Source: a virus. From it: 64,000 bases of DNA. The position numbers and the translations under genes are program-made. Positions 4,976 to 60,103 of this stretch are shown here, in pieces. The stretch lies in IMG/VR virus record IMGVR_UViG_3300028610_001991. The stretch is one strand, 5' to 3'. Below the pieces are notes generated by a model that was not told where the DNA came from, did no database searches, and saw nothing but the letters and a program-made list of their open reading frames with translations. How positions within the stretch are numbered: the first letter of the stretch is position 1; every line of letters starts with the position of its first letter.

Positions 4976-7900
4976 TTGGCGTACCCACTACAGTTAGCTA
5001 CAAAACGTGAACTAGAAAGTAAAGCACAAGATATTAAGTTTTTTGTTGAATTGGATTGGATGAGAAATAGATGGGAATATAATATAGATTCCTATGACGC
5101 TTGGGTTCAGTTTAGGGAAGTTATTTATTTATTTAATAGTTCTGTTTCGAGTGCAACTACCGACACACTAACGCTAAATGATAGTATGAGTGGTAGTAAT
5201 ATGTATATAGGAAAATATTTATTAATTAGAGAAGGAGGGGCAGAAGGGCAGCTAAGAAAAATTGAATCTCATACAACAGAGGTTATAACTTTAGAAAATT
5301 CATTTGATATTGTTCCTTATGCGGGTGTATCTGCAAGTGTTATCAATATACTTGGCGTTAATGACATAGATAGTAATTCAAGAATAGGCGCTAGTGCGTT
5401 TAATTCTTTTGGTGTTACTGCTCTTCAGGACAATATTGGTAGTGGGACAGTTGCCAATGTTGCTTATACACTATCTGCTCAATCTGATATCTGGACATTA
5501 ATATGTATAACTTCTGAGGAGATTGATGGGGTACAGACAGCTAGGTTTTTAGTTAAAGGTGAAACTAATGGATTACAGGAAGATGCTTTTTCTGATATAA
5601 GTTATAATAACGGACTTATATCTTTTACAGTAGAAAGCGGTAGTCGTGATTTTGAAGAGGGTGATACATTTATTTTAAGGCCAGCCTTAACTACAAAAAA
5701 AGATGATGCCGGTGATTTTCAGGAAGCTACTGTTTTTAGTGGTACAGATTATACTTCTGCTCCGCTATTATACGGTGGGCCTGATTTTTTAGCATGGGAT
5801 GAAATAACATGGGAAGGTTCAAATGTTGAAGTTTATGTAAGAACAAGTAATAGTGATACTGAGCCAACTTGGTCAAGATGGAGTTTAGCTATTAAGGATC
5901 AAATTATATCTGGTGAACAATTAGGGATGTATTTACAGATTAGAGTAAAGCTTATACCCCCTACGCCGACTACGCAGCCTATAATATACGGTTTAAAGAT
6001 TAAATATAAAGTAAAGGCACATACTAATTTTACTAGTCACTACCAGCATGTCTATGGTTTTAACAGAATAAAGAGTATTAGGGTTAGTAGGAGTAAGTCA
6101 GAAGCGTTGGAGGGTTATTCTGCTGCTGATATGAATATAACATGGGATAACAGTGATGGTAGTTTTAGTAAAGAGAATGTAGACAGTCCTTACTTTGGTT
6201 ATTTAAGACCGAATATAGGGGTTAAAATATATACCGGTTTTAGTGAAGAGCTTATCCCCCGTCTTGATGGATTTATAGGCGGATTTAACGTACAGGCCGG
6301 AGGTAGAAGTTTTACTACACGAGGTAAAGATAGAATTAAATTATTAATAAAAAAGAAAATCAAAAAAGGTGATGCCGGTTTTAGGTCTTGGACAAATCAG
6401 ACATTAGCTTTTTTAGTTAAAATACTTGCTTTAGATTCTGATTTTCCATTAGAGGATTTAGACCTGTTTGATTTAGTTGTTAACCCTGAAATATCATATG
6501 TTACTTTTAAAGGTAAACATGCATGGGAGGCAATTCAGGCCTTGGCTACAGGTGCTTTAGCAGATGTATTTGCAACAGAGAATGGTAAGTTAAAAGTTAT
6601 TGATAAGTTTAGCCCTAAGTATAGTATTCCGGCACCTGGTATATACACAGACGGTGCAGATTATTTAAATATTATACATAATGATTATTTTAAACAGGTT
6701 GTTTTTAGTGTTATGTATAAACAGGCAAATGTTTTGTACAGTTACTTAAACAGTGAGCTCCAGTTAATAACCGAAGGTGTTTTTGGTATGACGTATGTAT
6801 ACAATGATGATTTTCAATCAGGCAGGGAAAGGCATAATATATGGTTTACTAGTGAAAATACTTTGTATAGATTACTGGGCTCTTTAACAGAGATAGGATT
6901 TGAAGAGATAGCTAACATACAAACTATTGATATTAACATTAAATTTACTAACCTAAGTGTTTATAATAAAATTTATAAGGATTTGATAGGTGGGTATGTA
7001 AGTAAAAATACAGAAGTCGATACGGCTACTGCGAATCTCATTACAGTTAAGGACAACTTAGGGGTAGTGGACACGTATAAAGGTGATTACGTGCTGATTA
7101 AAAGTGGGGTAGAGTCTGGTAATATGCGTCAGATAAAGACGCATACTAGCCTTGTAATTACACTTGAGACTTCTTTTGATACTGTTTTAGTTGCTGATGT
7201 AGACATAGATATCATAGAACTTCCGAAACGTACTATAGCAGATTTAATTTATTATGCAGGTGTATTTGGTATTATTCTTTCTGATAGGTTATCTTACTAT
7301 AAATATTCTGTTAGAGATACAGAGAATATAACAGAAGAGTTTCAAGCTGTTGATTTTGAAGATCATACGGATTCTCAATTAGATCCGTATGAGTATAACA
7401 CTGCAACAGGCATTCTATATAAAAATTCAAAACTGAATTTAGAAAAAGAGTCTTCTGGTAAATTTGATACAGAAGTCTTTAAGGTGTCAGTTAGTGATGG
7501 TTCTTTAACTAAATTACAGTACGATGATACATTTAACGGTAATCAGTTTTTCTTTGTTCCAGAGGGTGAGACTGTTACAGAAGGTAATGGTGAGGAAGGA
7601 GGTTACAGAGTACCTTGGAGTGGAAACGGATTTAAGTCTGGCTACGCGCAAAGTCCTTCAAGCTGGAGGTTTGGCGACACTAATGACGAAATAATAATAA
7701 ATTATAGAGGGTCATTTGAGGCTTTAGGTGATTATTATCGAATAGTATACACTGCTAAGATACCTATTAGAAAGGTACTTGATACAAACCTATATGAGGA
7801 TTACAGAGTTTATAAAAATTTAACCTATAACGGTGTCCCTGGGTATATGCTATCTTTAGTAAGCGCACAGACAGGTTTTAGTGCAAGTGACGGGGATGTT

Positions 7901-10900: not shown

Positions 10901-11527
10901 TCGTATGATCCTACCGGTGTATTATACACAACATCTGTAGGTATAAGCGGTTTTCATTTAAATATGATATGGCCGAACGATGCTGTACTACACGGTGTAA
11001 GTTTTTTAAGAATCGAGAATCCTACTAATGACCCTGTAGATTCTTTATATAGCTCAACTGAAGATCCATCACAACTTGGAGTATGGATAAATAAAATTGA
11101 ATTAAGAGGGCTTCCCGTAGTAGCACAGACTATAGATATGGCTTCAGTAAGAGATGAGAAGTCTATAAAAGAGTATGGTAAGTCAGAGTTGTCTTTCCAG
11201 AATGAATATATACAAGACGGAGAAACTGCTTTAAAGGCTGGTAACTATTTGCTAAAAAGAAAAGCTCATCCTATAATTAAACCTAATTTAAGTATTATTG
11301 GTTTACCTAATTTACAATTAGGAGACACAGTTAGTATTCGTGAGATTAATTCCGGGTTAGCTTATGACTTATGTGAAATTCTTAGTTTAGAGGATAATTT
11401 ATCAGGAGCAACGTATACTATGAGTATAACTACTTTTAAAGTACTAGATAAACCTTTAGGTTCATTACTGATTGAAGATATATATAAAAGGAAATTATTA
11501 AAGAATAAATTTAAAGGGGCGGTATAA
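4976..11527 (+). CDS. Large (2183 aa) central tail / host-specificity protein
   Basis: TTG start after an AGGAGG RBS. Contains the tail-hub-like segment SAADMNITWDNSDGSFS and the C-terminal DEKSIKEYG…IIGLPNLQLGDTV motif typical of minor tail proteins. Has an internal ~65-aa duplicated module. Confidence 0.7.
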   Translation: MAYPLQLATKRELESKAQDIKFFVELDWMRNRWEYNIDSYDAWVQFREVIYLFNSSVSSATTDTLTLNDSMSGSNMYIGKYLLIREGGAEGQLRKIESHTTEVITLENSFDIVPYAGVSASVINILGVNDIDSNSRIGASAFNSFGVTALQDNIGSGTVANVAYTLSAQSDIWTLICITSEEIDGVQTARFLVKGETNGLQEDAFSDISYNNGLISFTVESGSRDFEEGDTFILRPALTTKKDDAGDFQEATVFSGTDYTSAPLLYGGPDFLAWDEITWEGSNVEVYVRTSNSDTEPTWSRWSLAIKDQIISGEQLGMYLQIRVKLIPPTPTTQPIIYGLKIKYKVKAHTNFTSHYQHVYGFNRIKSIRVSRSKSEALEGYSAADMNITWDNSDGSFSKENVDSPYFGYLRPNIGVKIYTGFSEELIPRLDGFIGGFNVQAGGRSFTTRGKDRIKLLIKKKIKKGDAGFRSWTNQTLAFLVKILALDSDFPLEDLDLFDLVVNPEISYVTFKGKHAWEAIQALATGALADVFATENGKLKVIDKFSPKYSIPAPGIYTDGADYLNIIHNDYFKQVVFSVMYKQANVLYSYLNSELQLITEGVFGMTYVYNDDFQSGRERHNIWFTSENTLYRLLGSLTEIGFEEIANIQTIDINIKFTNLSVYNKIYKDLIGGYVSKNTEVDTATANLITVKDNLGVVDTYKGDYVLIKSGVESGNMRQIKTHTSLVITLETSFDTVLVADVDIDIIELPKRTIADLIYYAGVFGIILSDRLSYYKYSVRDTENITEEFQAVDFEDHTDSQLDPYEYNTATGILYKNSKLNLEKESSGKFDTEVFKVSVSDGSLTKLQYDDTFNGNQFFFVPEGETVTEGNGEEGGYRVPWSGNGFKSGYAQSPSSWRFGDTNDEIIINYRGSFEALGDYYRIVYTAKIPIRKVLDTNLYEDYRVYKNLTYNGVPGYMLSLVSAQTGFSASDGDVVTGNNGEAVVFKHILPDGDIYDLHRLYIYDITGEFEEEDTITVNGKTAEVEHVYKVDKTNEVFFNRIITVYEESGSDYHGHLFYLDTADSYWGPASLVVKSTSFDFATSIPGAYPYAQVNMFTIPNSSMLDTSQTGEIHKVIAVEAMPNHSIVVVLCECFKEAQAYPYTTYSKTEYTYKLHWFKVDKPYGYTGKETEGSEIIYGVETLDLGDPRVRLYDAVYNPVYKHLDIAGGFTDDINQIAKLYRWSLTNIVVEFDNLAGKPFSNIYPDNAVDINTVIEKEYYYYFQKYGGYKSTTSEIYAWTDFMRTSEDKERCAVTQEIITLGTGDGVITEFSVPLANRPFDLQYVYIDGESIGTNFNFDGENAFLLEAPSSGSVVTAGAGKRVYRYYGTFLSYDLSSQIGGTPIWRDFTVSHDPYKPCKIRITINSDCNAGTVHIYGTNELGSPIDEIFDFGGAGIQTDENGDRYLESTNLFGTFNNAAPLSDADTCYNTTESRFRVESVYSDLIPGVILEIFTSVSDLDDQFGGDGTLSGYIDKVLIDVKKEGGLVEVKKISSEKRFKVSVVDKLNGVLYLGTENAGFTSRYSITGLDPIADYILEYDKNITDLSYGWDDNSIKNEIIVKSNKMETVPYRDVDIETGDPVSGNVPPSLWSGTLKEWLWARLERVWKSSAPNYLYKGHYLEYDVTFKDPVDNGGQINNIKFNAQFVENIGYLDENGYFKDSGDALNSDFPDHKLSDTLFGLHAGYGTSHTIDITEKYYRIFTPWDVSTTTLPAVYPIRYEDDFEISGDAVDVDLTDGIDLSGGDTVILNIGGSGAVTVSCASHAEDNTKVTATDIVVAINEAFLGFPASVFISRHTTTPHVLVQLKSTTRSDSTVISGGSAAVAIFGTASLTRTSRSYTRGELEKRNLIIYAGTVREPLTYEAGDFDIVEVLYPIAGDEVWALELTNPGDHVDKFLQLVYPDRINVVRSDIDKTYRDSDGSITNLLIQGSDRTLESYDPTGVLYTTSVGISGFHLNMIWPNDAVLHGVSFLRIENPTNDPVDSLYSSTEDPSQLGVWINKIELRGLPVVAQTIDMASVRDEKSIKEYGKSELSFQNEYIQDGETALKAGNYLLKRKAHPIIKPNLSIIGLPNLQLGDTVSIREINSGLAYDLCEILSLEDNLSGATYTMSITTFKVLDKPLGSLLIEDIYKRKLLKNKFKGAV

Positions 11528-14208
11528 TGAGCGGTAAATTAATTCCTATATTAGATGATAGCGCTATAACACACGGTAATCTATGGAATAACTTTAAGTA
11601 TTTAGAGGAATATCTGAGAGCTATTGCTGTTAATGCTGAATTAATAACAGGCGTATCTTTGGATACTGATTTTCAACAAGCTGTAGCTGATATACTGGCT
11701 GCGGATCTCGACTCTTTTATTACTAATTTAGCTGATTCCATATATAATCAGGATGATTTTCTATCTAGGATAGTTGAGGAAGATAGCAGCACAGGTGGAG
11801 AATTTGATGGATTAGAAAACAACCTAACTTTTTTAGGGAATCTTATCGATGAGTTATCTGATTCGACAACATTTATATCTGCATTTGTTGATTACTTACA
11901 GAATAATGCACCGGACTTTTTTGCATCTTTAGAGGGTGATGTGTTTAAGGCTTACTTCGGGCCTGCTCTAGATTTATTAATGTTTGCTACTACGTTACAA
12001 GAGACAGGGGTAGTGGGAGTATACTCGTTATGGGAGACAGGGGAGCCGGACATTATAGGGGATGATGCTACAAAATATGTAGGTGTAACTTTTGGGTTAG
12101 AAGATAATTTTCAATCAGATTTTAATTTGTTTGTGTCTCGTGATAGTAATTTTTCTAATATAGCAGTACATCCTGATGACGTAGGTGCTTATCCGCTAGA
12201 GGATCCCCCTACAGCTGTTTTAAGGTATACATATGATGCGTTTGATAATACAGGAGGTAATGCTGCCGGTGTTATAGCGGGTGCTTTTTTTAGTTCTATA
12301 GACGGAGCGCTACTATTAGATATATCTAAATTGGAATGGGACGGGCAGTCAGAGTTATATGTTAAACTAATGGGAACAAAAAGTAATTTAACGTATATAA
12401 GGGTTGGGTTCGATTATGCTACACATGCTTCTCAAGTTACAGAGGGTACTAGTGTAGGGGCTAGTACAGGGTTTGCAACAGTGGTTGTAAATACTCAGGA
12501 TGAGTGGGAAAAAATTGCAGGTAAAGCAGGGGAGCCTGAAAAAGCTGTCGGGTACTGGGACGGAACTAAGATAGTGTGGCCAGCTACAATGAAAGTTATT
12601 CTTGGAACAATAGACATACAGGACGCAGGTGCGTCAGGCGGTGATGTATTTGATGGCGGTTATGCTTATAAGATGCCTTATTCGATTTATTTTGATGGAG
12701 ATAATATACAGATATTAGGTCAAGGTAAGGTTACGCTTGTTAAGGGAAGTGATGATGCAGTATTTAAATCTTTGATACAACTAGAGGAGGCAAGTACAGG
12801 CCACCTAGAGACAGGAGATAAGAACATAATTTACATAGTTATTGATGAAGGTGATTTCAAGAAAGGTGATTTGATTCATTACGCATTAAATGATGGGTAC
12901 TATACTGTAGTAGACATTGATGTGATAGGAAATAGTATTACGGTGGACAGAGCTATTATAGAGGCAACAGCAGGAAGTACGATTACAGTACTTATAAATA
13001 ATCTTAAAATGGAAGGCTTCACTTTTGATGGTAGAGGAGGGGTACTTACAGGACATGGTTCTTTAAAGACCGGTGATAATGATGGTGGTAATGAGGGGGG
13101 TGGTTTTGCTCAGTTACAGGCAGTAGGTAATAGCGAGATATCCTGTAGGGTTGTTAATTGTAAAGCGAAAAACGGTGGGGCGTTTTGGTTAGACCGGTGT
13201 TATAATATACAGATATCTAATATTCAGTTTTGTGAAGCAGAGAAATTTGTTGGAGTAGGTGGTATGGGCGGAGGTGTTTATGGAGGTCAGTTAATTAGAG
13301 GGCATGTACATAGATGTCATGCAGATCAGGGCGGTGGTTTTGCTGCAGTTAAGAATGGTGAGTTATATGTATTCGATTGTACGTCTGGTGTTGTAGGTAA
13401 GGAAGCGTTTCATGTTTGTATTGATTCACTTATTGCTTTTAATAAGAAATTAATTATTGATGATCTTGACATATTGGGAGACTTTAATATTACAGGAGAT
13501 GCAGATATTCAGGGAAATTTAAATGTTAAAAATGATCTTGATACAGAAGGTTATTCCTCTCCTTCAGGAACCGGACGGTTATATGCTAAACTCGGTGAGA
13601 TTCGTGATCAAGGAAATGCAGTAGTAATTGAGGCTGATGGACATCTACATCCCAGTGGGGCATCTGGAATTAAGAGATGTGCAATTGATGTTAGCGGTAG
13701 TCCTTCTACTGTGGGTACGGCAGGAGATGATGTGGCAGTAACTGAGGGGTCTGGAACAGTAGTTAACAGAGAATTTATTGCTGAAAAAGTATGGAATGCA
13801 CAGTGGAATGATGTAGTTGATTTTATGGAGCTTGATGATAAACTGGTATCTGGTATGTGTTACTATATTACGGACAAGGGCGCAAAGCTATGTACTAAGC
13901 GGTGTCAGGCAGGCGTAATAGGTCTTGCGTCAGATACATTTGGTTTTGGTGTAGGTAGTTCTCCGGAACGAAAATTACCATTATCAATTGCTGGTCGTGT
14001 ATTAGCGTATGTAGATAAATGCTATAAAGCAGGAACAGTTTTAGTTAATAATAGCAAGGGTGGTTTAACTAAAGCCCGTTGGTATGAAGAGATATTATTT
14101 AGTAGTAGACTAGCGGCTATATACCAGAAAAAGGAATATGCAAAAAAATGGGGTACTAGTAAAAAGAAGATTAAAGTTAACGGAAGACATTGGGTAAAGG
14201 TATTATAA
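11527..14208 (+). CDS. Tailspike/tail fibre with beta-helix region and C-terminal intramolecular chaperone (Peptidase_G2-like)
   Basis: Gly-rich parallel beta-helix-like repeats (GGGFAQ…GGAFW…GGGVYG…GGGFAA). The C-terminus WNAQWND…GVIGLASDTFGF…PLSIAGRVLAYV matches the pattern of autocleaving chaperone domains. Confidence 0.65.
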   Translation: MSGKLIPILDDSAITHGNLWNNFKYLEEYLRAIAVNAELITGVSLDTDFQQAVADILAADLDSFITNLADSIYNQDDFLSRIVEEDSSTGGEFDGLENNLTFLGNLIDELSDSTTFISAFVDYLQNNAPDFFASLEGDVFKAYFGPALDLLMFATTLQETGVVGVYSLWETGEPDIIGDDATKYVGVTFGLEDNFQSDFNLFVSRDSNFSNIAVHPDDVGAYPLEDPPTAVLRYTYDAFDNTGGNAAGVIAGAFFSSIDGALLLDISKLEWDGQSELYVKLMGTKSNLTYIRVGFDYATHASQVTEGTSVGASTGFATVVVNTQDEWEKIAGKAGEPEKAVGYWDGTKIVWPATMKVILGTIDIQDAGASGGDVFDGGYAYKMPYSIYFDGDNIQILGQGKVTLVKGSDDAVFKSLIQLEEASTGHLETGDKNIIYIVIDEGDFKKGDLIHYALNDGYYTVVDIDVIGNSITVDRAIIEATAGSTITVLINNLKMEGFTFDGRGGVLTGHGSLKTGDNDGGNEGGGFAQLQAVGNSEISCRVVNCKAKNGGAFWLDRCYNIQISNIQFCEAEKFVGVGGMGGGVYGGQLIRGHVHRCHADQGGGFAAVKNGELYVFDCTSGVVGKEAFHVCIDSLIAFNKKLIIDDLDILGDFNITGDADIQGNLNVKNDLDTEGYSSPSGTGRLYAKLGEIRDQGNAVVIEADGHLHPSGASGIKRCAIDVSGSPSTVGTAGDDVAVTEGSGTVVNREFIAEKVWNAQWNDVVDFMELDDKLVSGMCYYITDKGAKLCTKRCQAGVIGLASDTFGFGVGSSPERKLPLSIAGRVLAYVDKCYKAGTVLVNNSKGGLTKARWYEEILFSSRLAAIYQKKEYAKKWGTSKKKIKVNGRHWVKVL

Positions 14209-14209
14209 A

Positions 14210-15592
14210 ATGGCCGGTAAAATAAGGTATATTAGAGATCGTGTTAACGGTAGTAATGCAAGTGGTGGTAATTATTGGGTGGAGATAGAAGTATATGACG
14301 AGGATGGAAACAATATTGCTCTGGGTACATCTGTTTCTGTTAGTCCTGCTTATGGTGGGAGTGGAACTAACCTAGCCAGACTTACAGATGGAAATTTAGA
14401 TACAGCGCAGTATGGCTCTATTAGTGGTGGATCAGGCGGGAACGGGGAGATACAGATTGATTTAGGAGGATTGTATCTTGTAGCTTATATAAAGGTATGG
14501 CATTATTACGGGGATAAACGAAATTTTAATAGTAAACGAACACAGGTATCTGATAACGGATCTACCTGGATAGATATGGCATTACCTGGAACAGGTAGTT
14601 ACCAGGAGCATAGTGGTGGAACAGTAATTAGAATACCATCTGTTTATTTTGATTTAATTCCTGTACATAGTCATAAAGATGCTGAATCTTCTGATGTAAC
14701 AGATGCGATCAAAGCATTGCGTCAGTCTATGTCTCAGCGGTTTGGTAGTATACCTGATTTAGGGGCTCAGTATAATATAGGAAATGATATTAAGGAAGGA
14801 ACGACACTAGGTACTATAAATACAAAATTAAAGGCAGTGGATGCTTTATATGGGTGGGATGTAGATCCTCCTAATAAATTTGAATATGATGATATTCAAG
14901 GTATGCTTTCTGAGACGGATAGGATTTCTAGTTTAACAGAGTGTAGTTCAGACTGTTCTAGTTTATGTAAAAATAATTGTTCAAATAGTTGTTTTGGTAT
15001 ATGTAAGGATTTATGTATAGTTGGTTGTGGTGATGGGTGTGCTGCTGCCTGCAGTACACCCTGTACTACAAATTGTTCAACAGCATGTTCAGGTTGTGGT
15101 GTGTCTTGTGCGATAGGGTGTGGGGCTGCTTGTCAGAGTAGTTGTGGTGGTTCTTGTGAATGGGGGTGTGTTGGTAATTGTGATACTCAGTGTGGTGTCT
15201 GTGATGTTCATTGTACGGCTAATTGTTCGGAGGGATGTCGTAGTTTTTGTGATGCTGGTTGTGGGGTTGTTTGTGATGGTGGTTGTGGTAGTACTTGTGC
15301 CCATTCTTGCTATACTGGATGTAAGGACTATTGTGAACTTTCGTGTGGGGCACAGTGCTACGCTGCTTGTGCAAATGGTTGTGGGACTGCTTGTGCTTCA
15401 GGGTGTGGTGCTTGGTGTGACGGTGGTTGTTCTTCTTCATGTGCAGGTAATTGTTATGCTGCCTGTGTAGCTTATTGTGGTACAATATGTCAAACTAATT
15501 GTGGAGGTTTATGTTTTACATCGTGTTTAAATTGGTGTACAACAACTTGCGGAGATGAATGTTCAAATTACTGTTATGGATCGGCGGTATGA
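14210..15592 (+). CDS. Discoidin (F5/8 type C-like) domain fused to a 54-Cys CXXX-repeat tail; predicted radical-SAM substrate
   Basis: The N-terminal IRYIRD…WVEIEVY…TDGN…IQIDLG…YIKVWHYYGD…VSDNGSTW segment is a phage-tail discoidin-like domain. The last 216 aa contain a Cys every fourth residue (54 Cys counted). Confidence 0.85.
   Translation: MAGKIRYIRDRVNGSNASGGNYWVEIEVYDEDGNNIALGTSVSVSPAYGGSGTNLARLTDGNLDTAQYGSISGGSGGNGEIQIDLGGLYLVAYIKVWHYYGDKRNFNSKRTQVSDNGSTWIDMALPGTGSYQEHSGGTVIRIPSVYFDLIPVHSHKDAESSDVTDAIKALRQSMSQRFGSIPDLGAQYNIGNDIKEGTTLGTINTKLKAVDALYGWDVDPPNKFEYDDIQGMLSETDRISSLTECSSDCSSLCKNNCSNSCFGICKDLCIVGCGDGCAAACSTPCTTNCSTACSGCGVSCAIGCGAACQSSCGGSCEWGCVGNCDTQCGVCDVHCTANCSEGCRSFCDAGCGVVCDGGCGSTCAHSCYTGCKDYCELSCGAQCYAACANGCGTACASGCGAWCDGGCSSSCAGNCYAACVAYCGTICQTNCGGLCFTSCLNWCTTTCGDECSNYCYGSAV
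14942..15589 (+). repeat. Cys-Xaa-Xaa-Xaa protein repeat (54 units, 12-nt period)
   Basis: Runs CSSD CSSL CKNN … CGDE CSNY CYGSAV. Only two units are CXX (CSG, CGV). Confidence 0.97.
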
Positions 15593-16854
15593 CGGAAACA
15601 CATAAAGATTTTATGGTTATTTCTAAAGGTAACTGGTCTAACGACTATGCATCTATGTTTGGTGGAATAAGTATGCCTAAGTCTATATCTATTCAAGTTA
15701 CTGAAAGATGTAATTTAAGATGTACCTACTGCTATTTTTATAAGAGGCGCGGTAAAGATATAACATATGCTATTTTAGACAAAATAATTAGTATGGTGTA
15801 TACAAACCCTTTTTTTAGTGACACGCCTTCCTTTATATTTGATTTTATAGGAGGGGAGCCTTTACTGGTGAGCGATAAGTTACAGTACTTTATAGAAAAT
15901 TACTATAAAGAAGGCTTAAAGAGAAACGTTAAGAATATACAAAAATTGTATAGTACTCGATTCTCCATGTCTTCTAATGGGGTGTTATATTTTTCAGATA
16001 AAACTAGAAGTTTATTAAAAAGGTATGCACATATAATTAGTTTTGGCATTACTCTTGATGGTTCTCCCGAGATGCATAATAAATGTAGAATTTATCCAAA
16101 TGGTGATGGTTCTTATGCCGATGTAAGAAAAGCTGTAGATGAACAATTAAAATATAATAAAGGTTTATCCAGTAAGGTTACTTTTTCGGTGGACAATATA
16201 CATATGCTATACGATGCTATAAAACATCTAATAAGTATAGGCATTAAAACAATACACGCTAATCCTGTTTTTGAAAAAGGATGGAAAATAAAACATGCAG
16301 AAATATATTATGATGAATTAATAAAATTAGCTAATTATATACTAAATAATGATTTGGAAAATAAAGTGGATGTTAATTTATTTACACAAAATATCGGAAA
16401 ACCAATGGATGAACGTGAGAATAGTAATTGGTGCGGAGGTACAGGTGCGATGTTAGGCATAGGTTTTGATGGTAGTATCTACCCATGTGCTAGATATTTT
16501 CCAACAGCTCTAAGTAAATATAAGCCACCTGTAATAGGAAATGTTTTTGATAATAAAATTGATTGGGCATGTAATAAGGTAACAAAAGGTATTGATAAAA
16601 TAACTCGTAAAAGTCAGTCATCAAAAAGATGTTGGGAATGTTTAGTTGTACAGGGATGTGCTTGGTGCTCCGCTTATAATTATGATTATTATGGTATAAT
16701 TAATAAACGGACAACTCATATTTGTAACATGCACAGAGCTAGGGTAAGGGCTAACTATTATTATTGGAATTCAGTTTATCAAAAATATAATATGGATACT
16801 GAGTTTATTCTTTATCCGTGTGAATGGGTTGAAGATCCTGAATACGGATACTAA
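15589..16854 (+). CDS. Radical SAM/SPASM peptide maturase, CXXX-repeat target family (TIGR04115-like)
   Basis: CNLRCTYC SAM-cluster motif, GGEPLL and SLDG-like TLDG motifs, and SPASM cysteines NWCGGTGAM…IYPCARY…CWECLVVQGCAWCSAYNY…ICNMHRAR. The likely start is the ATG at 15589, overlapping the substrate stop (ATGA). Confidence 0.9.
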   Translation: MTETHKDFMVISKGNWSNDYASMFGGISMPKSISIQVTERCNLRCTYCYFYKRRGKDITYAILDKIISMVYTNPFFSDTPSFIFDFIGGEPLLVSDKLQYFIENYYKEGLKRNVKNIQKLYSTRFSMSSNGVLYFSDKTRSLLKRYAHIISFGITLDGSPEMHNKCRIYPNGDGSYADVRKAVDEQLKYNKGLSSKVTFSVDNIHMLYDAIKHLISIGIKTIHANPVFEKGWKIKHAEIYYDELIKLANYILNNDLENKVDVNLFTQNIGKPMDERENSNWCGGTGAMLGIGFDGSIYPCARYFPTALSKYKPPVIGNVFDNKIDWACNKVTKGIDKITRKSQSSKRCWECLVVQGCAWCSAYNYDYYGIINKRTTHICNMHRARVRANYYYWNSVYQKYNMDTEFILYPCEWVEDPEYGY

Positions 16855-16867
16855 AAAGGAGAGTTTT

Positions 16868-17176
16868 ATGGATACAGTAAGTAGTAATGTAAAAGTTAAA
16901 GTAGACAAGAAATTTGTTGACAGATTAAAGGGACTTAACTACGAGTTGGAAACAATTAAGATGTTATTTCAGATGGATGATGTTTCTGATAATGTATACC
17001 AGCGTATTAAAAAAGACCTTATTGCTGTTAAGAAACAGTATGACGAAGTTTGGTATGAGATGAAAAAGAAGTATGATTTATTTAAGTATGAAAAACCACA
17101 TTTTAGGTGGAATCTTGATTTTGAGCTTGCTGAGGTTATTTTAATTACACAGGGAGAGTATACGGGTAGGAGGTAA
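16868..17176 (+). CDS. CXXX-repeat modification system accessory protein (TIGR04116-like)
   Basis: About 102 aa after an AAGGAG RBS. The pattern VYQRIKKDL…YDEVWYEMKKKY…WNLDFELAEV matches, from memory, the small partner protein of CXXX-repeat maturases, and the gene directly follows the radical SAM gene. Confidence 0.7.
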   Translation: MDTVSSNVKVKVDKKFVDRLKGLNYELETIKMLFQMDDVSDNVYQRIKKDLIAVKKQYDEVWYEMKKKYDLFKYEKPHFRWNLDFELAEVILITQGEYTGRR

Positions 17177-17179
17177 TCA

Positions 17180-17902
17180 ATGAGACGTAAAGAGTATAGA
17201 AGCGGTTTTATAGTACGTACTGCATTAGACAAGTTTGATCTTGTACCACGTACACTAAGAGATATCGATGGCTTTAGTGTAGTGGATGCTAATGATACAG
17301 ATTTTACTGGACTGGGGGATAACAGGGTTGTAAAGTGGCAGGGTGATCTAGCTACAGGGAAAATGATTAAGGGCCCCTTACTCGTATCAGATATAGGCGA
17401 CGATACTACACCTGGGAGTACTGATAAAGTACCGGATGAATTTGCTGTAAAGCAGTTCCTTAAACTATACATGTCAGGTTTTGATTTACAGGAGAGTGTT
17501 CTCCATAAAGGATTTAATAGCCCTTATGAAGCAGGAGGTGGACCTTTTACACATAATGAGGGTTATATGATTGGTGGGTCTCCGGTAGATGAATGGGCAG
17601 GACACCCTTATGCTTTAGCTTATTGGGATGAGGGGTTATATCCTGCAGAAGGTTGGCGTTTTGTTGATATAGATACCGGCTTGATAGTAGAAGTTGAAGA
17701 TGAAAATGCAGGGTTAGGGATATTTTATTATTGGACAGGAGGAGATACTTCTCAGGATCGGTGGAAGGCTATACCGTATTTACAAGATATAATAAAACTA
17801 GGTGCTATTGATCCTACAGAAACAATAAAAGGTGCAACTCATGAAGCAATATACAATTTTACTAAAGAGGAAGCAGTAAAGGCTGCTATAATTTTTGGCT
17901 AA
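17180..17902 (+). CDS. Virion structural/fibre protein
   Basis: Contains a GFDLQESV motif of the kind seen in phage fibre proteins; lies within the tail operon. Confidence 0.45.
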   Translation: MRRKEYRSGFIVRTALDKFDLVPRTLRDIDGFSVVDANDTDFTGLGDNRVVKWQGDLATGKMIKGPLLVSDIGDDTTPGSTDKVPDEFAVKQFLKLYMSGFDLQESVLHKGFNSPYEAGGGPFTHNEGYMIGGSPVDEWAGHPYALAYWDEGLYPAEGWRFVDIDTGLIVEVEDENAGLGIFYYWTGGDTSQDRWKAIPYLQDIIKLGAIDPTETIKGATHEAIYNFTKEEAVKAAIIFG

Positions 17903-17913
17903 GGAGTAGATAA

Positions 17914-18258
17914 ATGATTAAAAATATTGATTTTGTAAGTACAAGCGAGATTACTCTATACGAACGAATTGATACTGATGATTCAGAAGCTATGATACTG
18001 ACTGTGTATTTTCTTAACTATAGTGGTAGTTCAGTGAATCTTACTATATACCTAAAAGAGGTTGGGAATGCTACAGCAGATGATGATAATGCAATACTTA
18101 AGGATGAACCTATTGCAGCTGGTAAGACATATGAGCTTAATGCTTCCGAAAAGATTATGTTAAAAGGACATACGGCTGCAGCAAGTAGAAATAAACTATC
18201 AGCTAAAGTAGATACTGCGGATGCTATGACAGCTACTGTTTCTTACACTGATTTATAA
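17914..18258 (+). CDS. Small beta-sandwich virion protein
   Basis: 114 aa with the pattern TLY…ILTVYFLNYS…VNLTIYL…IAAGKTYEL…IML…LSAK…ATVSY, common to small tail-associated proteins. Confidence 0.5.
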   Translation: MIKNIDFVSTSEITLYERIDTDDSEAMILTVYFLNYSGSSVNLTIYLKEVGNATADDDNAILKDEPIAAGKTYELNASEKIMLKGHTAAASRNKLSAKVDTADAMTATVSYTDL

Positions 18259-18271
18259 AGGGAGGCCTTAA

Positions 18272-19900
18272 ATGCCTGGTAGAAATAGATTAAAAAATTG
18301 GCTTAATCAGTCTTTCGAGATACCTGTATACTTTAGGGAGCTTTTTGATGTTCTTTTGAGTTATACTGGTTTAAAAGGAAGCCCTTTAGTTATAAACGAT
18401 ACAGAAGATGGTGTTAACACAAGCGAATTTTCTGCGGAGATATTTAACGTCGCTAAGCTTGCAGGGTTTGGAACTTCAGCCCTTGCTAAAGGGGATGGTA
18501 CTTTATCAATAGCTCACGGCCTTGTTCCTTTTTTAGATACCGTAGGGGATTGCTACTTTATTATTTATAATAGTGGTTTTCAGGGTAGATGGAGATGGAC
18601 TGCAGGAGGAGGGGCCGGTTTAAAATCGACTATTCCAGCACTTTCTGCAGACGGAGGAGGAGAAGGAGATTTTTGGTTAGGTACATCTGGTACTAATTGG
18701 ACAAGTTTTGCGAATGTACCTACTGGCTATTATACGATTTGTTTACCCGGAACTACCGGTAGGCCTACTAGAATGTGGTACGATGAGACTAAGGTGACAG
18801 CTGCCTTGACCGGATCCAGTACTAAAGTATATGTAGATAAGGCCGGATGTATGTGGAAAGAAGGAGCAACATGGGCCAGAGGTGAGTTTATATGTGGTCC
18901 TACAGTGGTAGATGGGCACGGTAAGAACATGTTAAATTCTTATGCTGATGATACTAACCCTAGAGCAAATGTGATAGGCTTTGCGCCTATGAAGGGCTCA
19001 GGAAATGCAAGTATAGAGGTAATAGGTGCAGGTGAATATGGGTGGTATTATGCATCTGTAGGAGATGCTGTCGCTATAAACGGTATTGGTTGGGCTGGAG
19101 TATATACGAATGTTCCAGGGTTTTATCTTGTTACAGCAACTAATTGGGATACTTTCGCAGATGTTTCTCCAGGGCTTAAAGAAATTCAGCTTAAATATTA
19201 TGATGGTGCCAATGTTGTAGATGGCACAAAGATTTTGATGTATTATGATAGGACAAAATTAATTAAATATTTTTCTGGTAATCAGGCTAATGCTTATATT
19301 GATATGCTTGGAAATATATGGAAAGGAAATCCGGAGTCTGGTGGTGTATTTGTATGTGGTCCTTATGAGTCTTCGGGTATTTTTGATGAAAGACATACTA
19401 AGTTGAAAATTTCTTCTAACGATACTACAGAAGATTACCTTATTAATAAATTGACTGAGACAGCTAACATAAAGTTGATTGAAATAAATGATGGCGGTGA
19501 TGAAGGACTTGAGGTTAAGGCTACACGTCTCCCAGTATGGGATTCTACATATGAGTATGCAGAAAACGACCATGTTGTATATAGCGATAAGATTTATAAA
19601 GCGATACACAGCGGGGCAGGGAATACTAATAAAACGCCTTCCTCTGAAACTGCTTATTGGGAATTAGCTACGGGAAAGGCTGGTAATGGAACAATAAGTA
19701 CGGGAAATACAGAAGTGGCTGTAGTCATTGTTGGTGAGTATAATAGGGCAGCAGTATCTGCTGTAGGGTTAAACGCTACGCAGCGTACACCTCAGGTTAA
19801 ATCAATAGCTTATTCTGTCCCGAATACAACAGTGACGGTTATGATAGGTTCGTCTTATGTAGAAGATATAGTTGTACATGTAATTGTTTCTAGGGAGTAA
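18272..19900 (+). CDS. Tail fibre-like protein with internal duplication and CBM5/12-like module
   Basis: Two ~70-aa repeats (WTSFANV…YVDKAGCMWK…FICGP and WDTFADV…YIDMLGNIWK…FVCGP), plus WDSTYEYAENDHVVYSDKIYKA…PSSETAYW, a carbohydrate-binding module pattern. Confidence 0.6.
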   Translation: MPGRNRLKNWLNQSFEIPVYFRELFDVLLSYTGLKGSPLVINDTEDGVNTSEFSAEIFNVAKLAGFGTSALAKGDGTLSIAHGLVPFLDTVGDCYFIIYNSGFQGRWRWTAGGGAGLKSTIPALSADGGGEGDFWLGTSGTNWTSFANVPTGYYTICLPGTTGRPTRMWYDETKVTAALTGSSTKVYVDKAGCMWKEGATWARGEFICGPTVVDGHGKNMLNSYADDTNPRANVIGFAPMKGSGNASIEVIGAGEYGWYYASVGDAVAINGIGWAGVYTNVPGFYLVTATNWDTFADVSPGLKEIQLKYYDGANVVDGTKILMYYDRTKLIKYFSGNQANAYIDMLGNIWKGNPESGGVFVCGPYESSGIFDERHTKLKISSNDTTEDYLINKLTETANIKLIEINDGGDEGLEVKATRLPVWDSTYEYAENDHVVYSDKIYKAIHSGAGNTNKTPSSETAYWELATGKAGNGTISTGNTEVAVVIVGEYNRAAVSAVGLNATQRTPQVKSIAYSVPNTTVTVMIGSSYVEDIVVHVIVSRE

Positions 19901-19908
19901 ATAGCATA

Positions 19909-22461
19909 GTGGCAGAACTAAAACTTTGGAATAAATTAGAATCAGGTACAAGTGAGGTCGGTGTAGATGGCTCAGTTACAGGAGGTACGTTTGTTCCGGC
20001 TAAATACAATAATGGATTTCAAATAGATGCTATTAGTGAGTATATAGATTTTAGTATAGTTCCTGATGAAGATTACGGAGCTATAGAGTTATGGTTTATG
20101 CCATCTTTTTCAAGTACCGATACTACAAACAGATATATTGTGGACAGATCCGATGTAACTACTAGGGTAGGATTTAGGTGGGATTCTACTTCTATGTTTA
20201 TAGTGCAGCACGGTGGTGTAACTGTTTCTGCAAACCCTGTATCCTTTTTAGCTGGAGATTTATTACACTTAGCTGTTGTTTGGGATGTTGACGGTATAGA
20301 AGGTTCTGCAGATACATTACGATTTTATTATAATGGTATATTGCTCGGTAGCACAACTTCAGTGTTGAGTTCACTAGCTCAAACAGATATAAGGGTAGGT
20401 ACTGATCAGGCAAATGCATTGTATGCTAACGGTGTAATAGATAATTTAAAAATGTATGATTATGCTAAGACTGATTTTTCAGATAGATTTTGGGAAGGTT
20501 ATTCTCCTGTCACAGAGCAACAATTTGATCGGTTAGATAAAGCACCCGCAGTGTTGGAGTCTACTTCTTATCTATCCGGTAAAGAGATCGAAGTACCGGA
20601 ACCAGATCATTATTGGAAACTTGATGAGGTTAGTGGAGATAAAGTAATTGATTCTGGAAAAAATCAAATTAATGGAATAAATAGTAGAGTAGCTGTTAAT
20701 CAAGATGGTTCTTATTTATTTGATGGTACCTCTGGTTATATAAATATAGCAGTTTCTGATATACCTATAGGAGCAGAGGCAAGAACTACTATTGCATGGA
20801 TTCAAGCTTCAACTATTTCTGGATATGATACAATATTATCCTGGGGAACTGCTTCTGCTGATCAAATATGGACAATGTATTCAAATGCAGGAGATTTGAT
20901 ATTATCTATGTCTGGTACTAGTTTAACAGCTTCTAGTGTTATATCAATTGATACTTGGTATCATGTAGCAGCAACTTATGACGGTACAACAGTCAGATTA
21001 TATCTTGACGGTGTTCTTATAGGTACATTGGTTCGTACTATTAATACCGGTTCTAGCGATTTTCACATAGGTGTATATATTGATAAGTCTCAAGAGTGGT
21101 TTGATGGGAATATAAAGAATGTTAGTATATATAACCAAAATTTAAGTTTATGTCAGATAAAAACAATATATGAGCAGGAAAAAGCTGAGCTTATTGAATC
21201 AGATATACCAATACCAGAACATCACTATCTTCTTGATTCCCTTGCTATAGCAGATAAGGGTAAAGGTAGTTTGATACTGCCAGGTCATTATTATGCAATG
21301 GATGAAACAGAACAAACAGTCAAAGCATTAGATGGCGGGATATACCCAGTTATTGCAGCAATGAATAATACACCTGTTAGTGAGGTTGGTAAGTATGGAA
21401 AAGCATTGCATTTAAATGGTACTACTCAGTATGTTAGTGCTGTTTCTATAAGCATAGGTAAAAGTTTTACTGTGTGTGTTTGGGTAAAGGCAGATGGTAC
21501 TACCTGGAATGATAATGCAGTAATAGGCAGCGCAAGGGCAGCTAATGGTTATGTAATGAACTGCGGTACCGGAGTTACTACATTTGGCGCATATGTTTAT
21601 AATTCATCGGGGGGACCTATTCAGACGATGGTAGCTCAGGATATTGGATTTGTTAATCAATGGAGACATTATGCTATAGTTCATGATAATGATAATGATA
21701 AAACATATCACTATGTGGATGGTAAGTTACTTTATATATACAGCGGTGCTATTGTAAGAACAGTAGGGACAATTAGTCCGGAAATAGGAAAAGATTCTAC
21801 ATTCGCAAGATACCACGATGGTCTTATAGATGATTATAGATTATATGATAAAGTATTATCGCAGCAGGAACTAATTGCTGCTATGAATAATACAGATACA
21901 CGCCGTCTTGCTTATGGTACTCTTTCAGCCACACCTCCTACTCTTGTATATGATAGTGAGATTGGTGAGTGTTTGAGCTTTAATGGTACAAATAACAGTA
22001 TAGGTTGTGGTAATACTTGGAACTTTGAAAGTAATGAGAGTTTTGCTGTATCTGGTTGGTTCAAGATGGCATCCCCACCAGTAACTACAAGGGATGTAAT
22101 AATTTCAAATAAATTAGAAACAGGTTCTCCTACCAGAGGATGGGAAGTATTTGTGCAACATACATCCGGTAACTTAAGATTTAGTATAACTGGAGATACA
22201 GGTACAAGTATAGCAGTAGAGCCTGCCGTAGATGTTGCTGATGATACCTGGCATAGTTTTTATGCAGAATATGACGGTTCAGGAAAAGCTTCCGGGTTGC
22301 TTTTATATTTGGATGGCGTTAGGCTATCACAGACTATTGAGGCAGATAATCTTGCCGGTTCTATAGTAGACTCAGCTTCTGATGCGTCTATAGGCTCAAA
22401 TAACAATGCTGACTTTTACTGGAATGGAAGACTAAAAGATATGAGGGTATGGAATAAATGA
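19909..22461 (+). CDS. Multi-LamG (concanavalin A-like) virion protein 1
   Basis: GTG start. About four LamG units with HYWKLDE…WYHVAATYDG…LYLDG…FDGNIKNV motifs. Confidence 0.85.
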   Translation: MAELKLWNKLESGTSEVGVDGSVTGGTFVPAKYNNGFQIDAISEYIDFSIVPDEDYGAIELWFMPSFSSTDTTNRYIVDRSDVTTRVGFRWDSTSMFIVQHGGVTVSANPVSFLAGDLLHLAVVWDVDGIEGSADTLRFYYNGILLGSTTSVLSSLAQTDIRVGTDQANALYANGVIDNLKMYDYAKTDFSDRFWEGYSPVTEQQFDRLDKAPAVLESTSYLSGKEIEVPEPDHYWKLDEVSGDKVIDSGKNQINGINSRVAVNQDGSYLFDGTSGYINIAVSDIPIGAEARTTIAWIQASTISGYDTILSWGTASADQIWTMYSNAGDLILSMSGTSLTASSVISIDTWYHVAATYDGTTVRLYLDGVLIGTLVRTINTGSSDFHIGVYIDKSQEWFDGNIKNVSIYNQNLSLCQIKTIYEQEKAELIESDIPIPEHHYLLDSLAIADKGKGSLILPGHYYAMDETEQTVKALDGGIYPVIAAMNNTPVSEVGKYGKALHLNGTTQYVSAVSISIGKSFTVCVWVKADGTTWNDNAVIGSARAANGYVMNCGTGVTTFGAYVYNSSGGPIQTMVAQDIGFVNQWRHYAIVHDNDNDKTYHYVDGKLLYIYSGAIVRTVGTISPEIGKDSTFARYHDGLIDDYRLYDKVLSQQELIAAMNNTDTRRLAYGTLSATPPTLVYDSEIGECLSFNGTNNSIGCGNTWNFESNESFAVSGWFKMASPPVTTRDVIISNKLETGSPTRGWEVFVQHTSGNLRFSITGDTGTSIAVEPAVDVADDTWHSFYAEYDGSGKASGLLLYLDGVRLSQTIEADNLAGSIVDSASDASIGSNNNADFYWNGRLKDMRVWNK

Positions 22462-58519: not shown

Positions 58520-60103
58520 ATGAAAACAGTAAATGGTTTTACTTATGAACAACTAAAACTTGCAGGATGGACTGACGAAGTAATAAAAGGACATCCTGTG
58601 TACAAAGCTTTTTTTGAACCTGAATCAGCTCCACAGGCATCTGATGCGACACCTCAGGTTGTAAAAGGGGATGACAGATCCACTTTGAGTAAAGGAATGC
58701 ATTCGTCGGATGATATGCAGGGAGATGCCTCTAATGTTCAATTTGGCGGTCCAAAGTTTGAATCTTGTGTAGTAGAGGCTAATAACCAGAAAACAATGAG
58801 ATTTAAAGGTCCTTACACCAGATCAAGAAAACATTGGATAGTGTGTGATGATGGAACAACTAGGCCTTTTAATTGTGGTTACGTTGAAGATGGAGGAAGA
58901 TGTATAGTAGAGGATGTTACGGATCCTCTGATTGGCGAAGATTCTTATGAGTTAAAGGCTGATCCTAATGTTCATGTATTACCCGGACAGAGACCGGCAA
59001 AGAAAAGACATTACAAATGGAAAGAATATAACCCTACCCTTTTAGCAGAATTACTAGGAGAGGGCGCAGCTAATGCAAATTCATGGTATTCCAGGGAAAT
59101 GTTTCTTTTTAATACAATTGATAGGGATTCTGTATGGTGTCAAAAAAATAAACATACAAAAATACTTTGTAAATCAGATAAAACAATAGGGATAGGCTCA
59201 ACTCTTTTTATTGAGATAAATAACCAAGCCAACGTGCATGGTAAGTATTTTACTTTTGATTATGTTATTGGTAAACAGGGTAGCGGTAGAAATACTAAGT
59301 ATTCTGCTACAGTTGCTCCGGGAGAGAATGCCAAGAATGCTTTAACACCAGAGGAAGCGGCATATGAAACATACGATTTATCTTCTTTTATAATACCTGC
59401 TGCTGAAAAATATATACTAGAGAATCTGGCGCAAAAGTTTAAACTGGTAATAGACTTTTGTAGAAAGATGAAGATTATTACCCAAAAACAAATAGAGGTA
59501 GAGAAAAGATTATACGCAGAAGGTTATCTTACAGATGACGGTTTAACAACGGCTAATTATACCCCACCGAGCCCTGCTCCCACGGATACACCTGTATCAC
59601 CTGCACCTGCACCTGCACCTGCAGCAGAAGTAGTAACAGAGACACCGCCTCAGCTTGTTAATACAGCTTCAGATGCTTCGCCTGTACTACCATATGCCCC
59701 GCCTGTACCACCAGAGGCTCCACCTGCACCACCAGCTGCTCCAGTTGCTTCATCTGCTCCAGTTGCTTCATCTGCTCCGCCTGCACCACCAGCTGCTCCG
59801 CCTGCACCACCAGATGCTCCGCCTGCACCATCAGAGACTCCACCTGTTGCTCCAGTTGCTTCAGCTGCTCCGCCTGTGCCTCCAGATGCTCCATCTGCAC
59901 CACCTGTACTGCCAGCCCCAGAAAAAACTGCTGCTGCACCGCCACCTCCTTCTGCTCATGTATCATCGGCTTTACCAGTAGCAGAAGAGCTTCCTATAGA
60001 TGTATCTGAACCGCCGGGAGTTCAATGTCCTTCATGTAGAACAGTTAGTGGATTAAATGAGACGGCGTGTAAGAACTGTGGAGGAAAACTAACACCATTT
60101 TAA
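58520..60103 (+). CDS. Putative single-stranded DNA-binding protein with Pro/Ala linker and C-terminal zinc ribbon
   Basis: gp32-like core (…FNTIDR…DYVIGKQGSGRNTKYS), adjacent to recA; ends CPSC…CKNCGGKL. Confidence 0.6.
   Translation: MKTVNGFTYEQLKLAGWTDEVIKGHPVYKAFFEPESAPQASDATPQVVKGDDRSTLSKGMHSSDDMQGDASNVQFGGPKFESCVVEANNQKTMRFKGPYTRSRKHWIVCDDGTTRPFNCGYVEDGGRCIVEDVTDPLIGEDSYELKADPNVHVLPGQRPAKKRHYKWKEYNPTLLAELLGEGAANANSWYSREMFLFNTIDRDSVWCQKNKHTKILCKSDKTIGIGSTLFIEINNQANVHGKYFTFDYVIGKQGSGRNTKYSATVAPGENAKNALTPEEAAYETYDLSSFIIPAAEKYILENLAQKFKLVIDFCRKMKIITQKQIEVEKRLYAEGYLTDDGLTTANYTPPSPAPTDTPVSPAPAPAPAAEVVTETPPQLVNTASDASPVLPYAPPVPPEAPPAPPAAPVASSAPVASSAPPAPPAAPPAPPDAPPAPSETPPVAPVASAAPPVPPDAPSAPPVLPAPEKTAAAPPPPSAHVSSALPVAEELPIDVSEPPGVQCPSCRTVSGLNETACKNCGGKLTPF
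59600..59900 (+). repeat. Coding tandem repeats of the Pro/Ala linker
   Basis: CCTGCA x4 (59600-23); 18-mer CTGCTCCAGTTGCTTCAT x2 (59736-71); 21-mer CTGCTCCGCCTGCACCACCAG about x3 (59772-59834). Confidence 0.9.

Follow-up and report, generated by a model that had tools for sequence, protein, structure and literature searches.

A radical SAM cassette in a phage tail operon and a proposal for enzymatic stitching of a cysteine-rich virion appendage

The 64,000-nucleotide stretch of viral DNA considered here (IMG/VR record IMGVR_UViG_3300028610_001991, called the window below) carries, on the + strand between positions 14210 and 17176, a cassette of three coupled genes. They encode a 460-amino-acid (aa) protein with a ladder of 54 regularly spaced cysteines, a radical S-adenosylmethionine (SAM) enzyme with a SPASM domain, and a small accessory protein. 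I propose that the cassette stitches the chemistry of peptides made on ribosomes and modified after translation (RiPPs) onto a virion appendage, and I give that proposal, taken as a whole, about even odds (roughly 0.5). To my knowledge, radical SAM peptide chemistry belongs to secreted natural products of small size and to a handful of proteins of cells, but not to virus particles, and the literature searched agrees: it held no paper in which structural proteins of a phage are modified by a radical SAM enzyme.

The proposal runs as follows. The three genes would be transcribed together with the late genes for tail and fibres, and the 460-aa protein would serve as a virion appendage or adhesin subunit. 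Its ladder would be modified many times by the adjacent enzyme, in the cytoplasm and before assembly. The enzyme, which has no RiPP recognition element (RRE), would act in complex with the accessory protein, whose helical hairpin would dock on it. The most likely chemistry would be a series of small-ring cysteine thioether cross-links of the sactionine or ranthionine type, and these would turn a Gly/Ser/Ala-rich segment into a covalently stapled rod, resistant to proteases and to reduction. The galactose-binding-like domain at the N-terminus of the protein would supply glycan binding.

The substrate gene (14210-15592, + strand) bears a faint precomputed match to PF27846 (tSAM_targ_Cxxx_rpt), and its product has three parts. 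Residues 4-144 (14219-14641) make up a beta-sandwich domain of the F5/8-type-C or galactose-binding-like kind, a kind present in phage tail-fibre proteins. Residues 145-244 (14642-14941) form a linker of about 100 aa. Residues 245-455 (14942-15574) are the ladder, (C-X3)n with two C-X2 breaks of register. The initial annotation had seen a discoidin-like domain, a linker of about 100 aa and 54 cysteines at every fourth residue over 216 aa, and that anatomy stands except that the ladder spans 211 aa.

The regularity of the ladder is its most telling property. Fifty-one of the 53 gaps between its cysteines are of four residues and the other two, after Cys293 and Cys328, are of three; shuffling the C-terminal segment 100,000 times never gave an arrangement with at least 20 gaps of four. 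The positions between the cysteines are chiefly Gly, Ser, Ala or Thr and vary freely. Nearly all of the ladder cysteines are encoded by TGT (50 of 54), and the underlying DNA shows no more than weak periodicities, at 12 and 24 bp with 68-90% matches, so that it does not qualify as a tandem repeat of recent origin. Since the DNA is not repeated and the intervening residues are free to change, selection acts on the spacing of the cysteines itself, at the level of the protein. In this the ladder is like the CXXX target repeat (TIGR04114/PF27846), in which an extended stretch has cysteine at each fourth position. The hidden Markov model (HMM) of the TIGR04114 repeat gave no match to the substrate, and the only NCBIfam models to appear for it at E up to 10 were TIGR04118 (11.3 bits) and TIGR04117 (9.5 bits).

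An alternative view is that the ladder is akin to metallothionein, an element that binds metal or iron-sulfur or is redox-active, and that the radical SAM enzyme prepares or loads it rather than cross-linking it. A segment in which 26% of the residues are cysteine and most of the others small would suit such a function, as would the report that Crp genes of Methanococcus are upregulated on pyrite (PMC13692751). Then there are the twin-arginine translocation (Tat) signals on homologues from Bacteroidales and Proteobacteria, Tat being the route typical of exported proteins that are folded around a cofactor. Export by Tat would suit a substrate cross-linked within the cytoplasm just as well, however, and the nearest characterized enzymes (PapB, CteB and those of the QhpD type) make C-S bonds and load no metal. 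Nor is regular C-X3 spacing filled by Gly and Ser a known Fe-S or zinc motif. I consider a metal-bearing ladder quite unlikely.

The N-terminal domain is one of the reasons to place the proposed substrate on the virion. Compared with PHROGs it matches phrog_36443 (E 1.4e-15) and phrog_21973, annotated as a tail protein (E 3e-11). A tblastn search connects it with minor-tail and tail-fibre genes of Bacillus phages (E 2e-17, with 37% of residues identical across 140 aa), and it is 29-38% identical to parts of proteins that are annotated as minor tail or tail fibre in phages of Bacillus and Rossellomorea. The name discoidin-like draws on Pfam matches that lie below the gathering score, PF00754 at 22.7 bits (cut-off 28.2, E 1.2e-4) and PF22633 at 22.4 bits (cut-off 27.8, E 1.9e-4), and on precomputed matches to the same two families on eight homologues of the substrate. 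In the AlphaFold2 model of the whole substrate (predicted local confidence, pLDDT, 47), the strands of the N-terminal domain reach 55-87 and the linker is helical at values below 50. A Foldseek search with this low-confidence model returned generic beta-sandwiches only, and nothing at E <=0.001. The substrate is a protein-sized fusion and not a peptide, as the initial annotation had it, and its N-terminal domain is homologous to tail-fibre and minor-tail domains of Bacillus phages. Read from the sequence, it has neither a signal peptide nor an obvious motif for cleavage of a leader. Possibly the linker is a leader-like segment by which the substrate is recognized. The idea, prompted by a likeness to the eye, that it corresponds to the conserved N-terminal domain of about 105 aa found on prophage-type CXXX proteins was rejected because an HMM built from 14 members gave no match (score -1.5, E 0.48, in a search of three sequences).

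The maturase gene (15589-16854, + strand) encodes 421 aa, or 431 aa if the alternative in-frame ATG at 15559 is used; both starts occur in public gene calls. Its best family is TIGR04115, with 341.4 bits, E 7.8e-102 and an alignment that covers model positions 2-359 of 359. The three cysteines of the CX3CX2C motif (C41, C45 and C48) are invariant across 20 relatives, as are C166, C282, C300, C348, C351, C357, C360 and C379, and the core of the SPASM domain is a variant CX2CX5CX2C. With the catalytic and SPASM motifs intact and the family aligned over its full length, the identification of a radical SAM/SPASM enzyme holds good. The closest solved structure is that of CteB (PDB 5WHY, E 8e-17), and because the alignment begins only at CteB residue 84 (and extends to 444), the maturase has no RRE domain. 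Only about 30 residues precede its radical SAM core.

What the enzyme makes has to be judged from its relatives. The second-best family is that of PapB (NF047865; 168.9 bits, E 1.6e-49), with other SPASM maturases a long way behind, and with PapB and CteB as nearest characterized relatives, and with the precedent of CrpC, the maturase would by analogy form thioether links. A different chemistry might be performed on the ladder: oxidation of cysteine as by anSME, epimerization, or links of the C-C or S-S type. anSME and other SPASM families match the maturase too (E 3e-21; structure 4K36), the SPASM motif is a variant one, and the residues that line the active site are unlike those of CteB. Yet the score for the PapB family is about 90 bits above that for any non-thioether family, and the sole invariant feature of the substrates is cysteine itself. 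I regard chemistry other than thioether formation as very unlikely. That the maturase acts on the ladder is strongly suggested by the translational coupling of the two genes and by their occurrence together across hundreds of loci, described below.

The third gene encodes the predicted partner of the maturase, a TIGR04116-like protein of 102 aa (16868-17176, + strand), and so bears out the claim that a partner of about 100 aa, homologous to the accessory family, completes the cassette. Its start is most likely the ATG at 16868, which follows AAGGAG; a GTG at 16820 is less likely. A model made for this analysis from 29 partners encoded at the same loci as such enzymes gives it 41.2 bits (positions 4-94), where the best of 1000 shuffles reaches 11.6, and it is therefore taken as a homologue of TIGR04116 that lies below the curated threshold. 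The accessory and the small co-located partners have in common a C-terminal motif, W-x-h-D-F-x3-E. AlphaFold2 models the protein (pLDDT 83) as a sheet of three strands bearing a helical hairpin, in the order beta-alpha-alpha-beta-beta, and Foldseek found for this model no match to a fold in the PDB and no likeness to PqqD or RRE.

Prediction of a complex between maturase and accessory gave a score of 0.68, while none of three controls rose above 0.00. Among 80 solved complexes 58 attain the mark of 0.68, as do 2 among 110 mismatched pairs, counts that apply only roughly here since the prediction used custom alignments. At least 49% of contacts agreed between runs, with the partner at pLDDT 76 or above, and the predicted contacts join the helical hairpin of the accessory, in an interface that takes in its residues 14-54, to maturase residues 103-124 and 145-149. 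The prediction supports, and does not show, that the maturase binds the accessory.

The setting of the cassette is that of a long structural operon. All three open reading frames (ORFs) were present on the + strand when checked, and the + strand of the window is a single long block of co-directional genes. From the gene that flanks the cassette on its 5' side, through the three genes, to the gene on its 3' side, the intergenic distances are 1, -4, 13 and 3 nt. The negative value is the ATGA overlap noted by the initial annotation, in which the maturase ATG at 15589 overlaps the substrate stop codon TGA at 15590-15592, and the coupling of the three genes is borne out. There is no excess of promoter-like or terminator-like sites across the cassette. 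With such gaps and no such sites, the cassette is embedded in the operon, and its GC content is similar to that of its surroundings. Upstream, a protein of 2183 aa matches a tail-fibre PHROG; downstream, proteins of 850, 706 and 242 aa match PHROGs for baseplate wedge and virion structure. Judged by these matches, the gene block around the cassette is virion- or tail-like. The place of the cassette in the operon, the domain of tail-fibre type and the fibre-like arrangement seen in other phages, described next, suggest that the substrate may be part of the virion.

Homologous cassettes stand among tail genes or directly after them in all three loci that were annotated. In the prophage of Desnuesiella massiliensis mt10 (locus L089), genes for tape measure, tail, baseplate wedge, a tail protein and a fibre-like protein lead up to the CXXX gene, which is followed by genes for proteins of 185 and 113 aa, the radical SAM enzyme, a holin and an endolysin. 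A family of gut siphophage contigs of about 60 kb has, one after another, genes for tape measure, Dit, a minor-tail protein, a structural protein of 795 aa, CXXX, accessory and radical SAM enzyme, and the ladder continues into a variable C-terminal domain of about 140-190 aa, as in receptor-binding proteins. In MT835573, a contig from the human gut, the neighbours of the cassette are fibre-like genes. An absence of homologous cassettes from tail modules had been named at the outset as grounds for abandoning the idea, and they are in fact present in the tail modules of unrelated phages. Comparison of the genes 5' of the CXXX gene across three phages gave no significant similarity, the best being a stretch of 44 aa at E 0.011.

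Some details of these cassettes are worth recording for their own sake. The gut siphophage contigs (loci L022-L073) show at least three variants of the C-terminal domain. Ladder and domain are fused in about 20 contigs (as in L027, 5934-7553), and in others they are split by an in-frame stop (L028, 5935-7014 and 7015-7551; also L057) or by a change of frame (L040, where the piece lies at 7000-7551); the split could reflect programmed read-through or frameshifting, or else an error of assembly within the repeat. Cassettes of the prophage type carry an extra gene, of conserved size at about 185-200 codons, between CXXX gene and accessory (L001 7041-7649, L089 7003-7560, L014 7065-7637), which has no PHROG or NCBIfam match and no counterpart in the window.

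It may be asked whether the substrate is cargo and no part of the virion: a RiPP-like or adhesin product, made in the course of infection or lysogeny, that is released at lysis or acts within the cell, encoded in a tail block that tolerates insertions. Moron genes often sit at the junction of fibre and lysis genes, and it is at this junction that the prophage cassettes are found. Furthermore, the homologues in bacteria are exported and have no connection with phages, and a fused homologue at locus L003 stands beside sugar and radical SAM genes with no recognizable tail gene. Against this, the genes of the cassette in the window overlap or abut their neighbours, are served by no separate promoter or terminator and are similar to their surroundings in GC content; the substrate has a domain whose other examples are in tail-fibre proteins and lacks both signal peptide and leader cleavage motif; and the siphophage ladder runs on into a domain like those that bind receptors. 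I think cargo unlikely. That several unrelated phage lineages use dozens of thioether rings to staple a cysteine ladder in an appendage of the tail, by means of a dedicated complex of radical SAM enzyme and partner, and that in this phage the ladder is fused to a glycan-binding domain, is a broader claim, tentative and a little short of an even chance.

How widespread is the system? A scan of viral contigs with the single protein found no match, and a scan with an alignment found relatives of the maturase on at least 520 IMG/VR contigs. Nearly all of 80 viral loci have a CXXX ORF on the same strand within about 2 kb of the maturase relative. A further 531 matches come from species-representative genomes, mostly of Clostridia and Bacteroidales, with some from Deltaproteobacteria, Ignavibacteriota and others, and in most genome loci too the CXXX gene adjoins the maturase. 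The organisms with these genome matches are overwhelmingly strict anaerobes, and this lends indirect support to the suggestion in the initial annotation that an oxygen-sensitive maturase hints at an anaerobic host. Radical SAM maturases such as PapB, however, work in facultative aerobes too.

The substrates fall into two main types. In Clostridia and the viral contigs a conserved N-terminal domain of about 105 aa precedes the ladder, and a further ladder protein, which is leaderless, is often present as well. Those of Bacteroidales and Proteobacteria have a twin-arginine signal peptide before the ladder, often as tandem paralogues. The maturase of the window falls with the first type and not with the Tat type, on a long, deep branch attached to the clade of Clostridia and viruses (support 0.96). 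Tat-signal CXXX proteins (of the SRREFFKKAAK type) also occur in Ignavibacteriota, and two to four tandem paralogues are frequent (L136-L166); examples are L149 5849-7920, L146 6719-7860 and L002 2222-2746. The last of these (MT837480.1, 6.8 kb) is filed as 'Bacteriophage sp.' and is bacterial in appearance: no phage gene was seen in it, and it holds genes for a Tat-signal CXXX protein, a maturase, a second, SPASM-like protein of 321 aa and an accessory, followed by TatA- and TatC-like genes.

Fusion of a discoidin-type domain to the ladder is rare. Among 5.8 billion protein clusters, within the length range searched, three clusters of it were found: that of the window (P0001), P0005 and P0011. 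The P0011 fusion is on a contig of 3.5 kb, behind a weak tail-fibre match. The P0005 fusion, at L003, is followed by an accessory-sized ORF and then by a TIGR04115-like radical SAM enzyme at 209 bits. Directly 5' of it (L003 890-6686) are four other radical SAM genes (B12-type, HemN-like, SPASM/twitch-type and MoaA-like) with an aminotransferase and a nucleotidyltransferase, which may be a set for modification of a sugar or cofactor on the same viral contig.

Several results count against the stapled virion appendage that I propose. None of the three families to which the layout had been assigned, TIGR04114, TIGR04115 and TIGR04116, reaches its curated NCBIfam cut-off: the maturase is 9 bits short of 350, though its homology is not in doubt; the accessory scores 26.8 bits (E 4.4e-6) against a cut-off of 50; and TIGR04114, as said, has no match. 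The assignment stands, therefore, as homology of maturase and partner and not as membership of the curated families. All six positions that lie in catalytic proximity in CteB differ, being Y, I, S, T, A and R in the maturase and F, F, T, S, H and Q in CteB, and the type of thioether is for that reason not assignable (PMC10288494). The ladder offers no fixed acceptor, the three positions after each cysteine (+1 to +3) being variable, unlike the Asp of the CX3D motif in PapA, and AlphaFold2 gives it no confident fold (pLDDT 30-45). The neighbourhood of the P0005 fusion is not recognizably one of tail genes. In the window itself, the flanking proteins of 893 and 542 aa belong to no recognizable family, and the names tailspike (11527-14208) and fibre (18272-19900) given to them by the initial annotation were not confirmed, neither having a match in PHROGs, Pfam or phage records. 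Finally, the literature searched held no experimental data on any TIGR04115 system.

The known systems that come closest help to place the cassette. The CXXX-repeat system (TIGR04114, TIGR04115 and TIGR04116, with PF27846) has the same enzyme family, aligned over the full length of the model, the same partner family, and an adjacent target on the same strand with cysteine at every fourth residue. It is a family defined in silico, with no experimental paper in the literature searched. Its targets are short or Tat-signal proteins, whereas the target here has 460 aa and is fused to a domain of the tail-fibre type, and the order here is target, enzyme, partner, where in prophages it is target, a protein of about 190 aa, partner, enzyme. 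PapB, which makes freyrasin from PapA, is like the maturase a SPASM radical SAM enzyme, and it modifies cysteines repeatedly in a repeat substrate; but in PapA, which is a short peptide, the Asp of six CX3D motifs is the acceptor, the ladder has 54 cysteines and no fixed acceptor, and 168.9 bits is far below the 340-bit cut-off of NF047865.

A further comparison is with CrpC of Methanococcus voltae, a SPASM radical SAM enzyme that installs ranthionine cross-links on a protein-sized cysteine-repeat substrate, CrpA, encoded nearby (PMC13692751, 2026); N-terminal parts of CrpA aid its engagement (PMC13692751). Here too there is a protein-sized cysteine-repeat substrate with a SPASM enzyme as neighbour. 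The likeness does not extend to the details: CrpC has an RRE and the maturase does not, its family TIGR04463 scores only 43.7 bits on the maturase, and CrpA is an archaeal, cellular protein with a 17-residue repeat and a C-X-X-Q/D motif, whereas the ladder is C-X3 and viral. CteB, the maturase of the SCIFF thioether peptides, has in common with the enzyme of the window the radical SAM core and the SPASM domain; it differs in its N-terminal RRE and in all six substrate-lining positions. Specific to this phage are the N-terminal discoidin-type fusion, the order target-enzyme-partner, the divergent enzyme lacking an RRE and the predicted complex with a partner.

The rest of the window adds a few facts about the phage. 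Public contigs as long as 187 kb encode a protein identical to the 460-aa substrate, and the phage is for that reason taken to be a large uncultured one; no cultured relative was found, and megablast of window positions 11000-20000 gave no match. Just 3' of the cassette, a protein of 240 aa (17180-17902) has a sub-threshold match to DUF2793 (E 3e-5) and a match to phrog_5363. On the 3' side of the structural block lies a replication module with a DnaB-like helicase, a second helicase, PolA and a single-stranded DNA-binding (SSB)-like protein. The last (58520-60103) has a Pro/Ala-rich linker of about 150 aa and a C-terminal CxxC...CxxC motif like that of a zinc ribbon. The Pro/Ala-rich stretch causes a local rise in GC, a loss of GC skew and off-frame shadow ORFs, and an apparent second cysteine-rich ORF near 59660 was rejected as one of these shadows.

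If the proposal is correct, then enzymatic covalent cross-linking, distinct from autocatalysis of the HK97 type, would be added to the routes by which phage tails are built, and the uncharacterized TIGR04115/TIGR04116 system would gain its first biological role. An enzyme without RRE, with a small predicted partner, points to recognition of the substrate in a manner unlike that of classical RiPP maturases. The cassette would also represent a genetically encoded route to long, multiply stapled protein rods.

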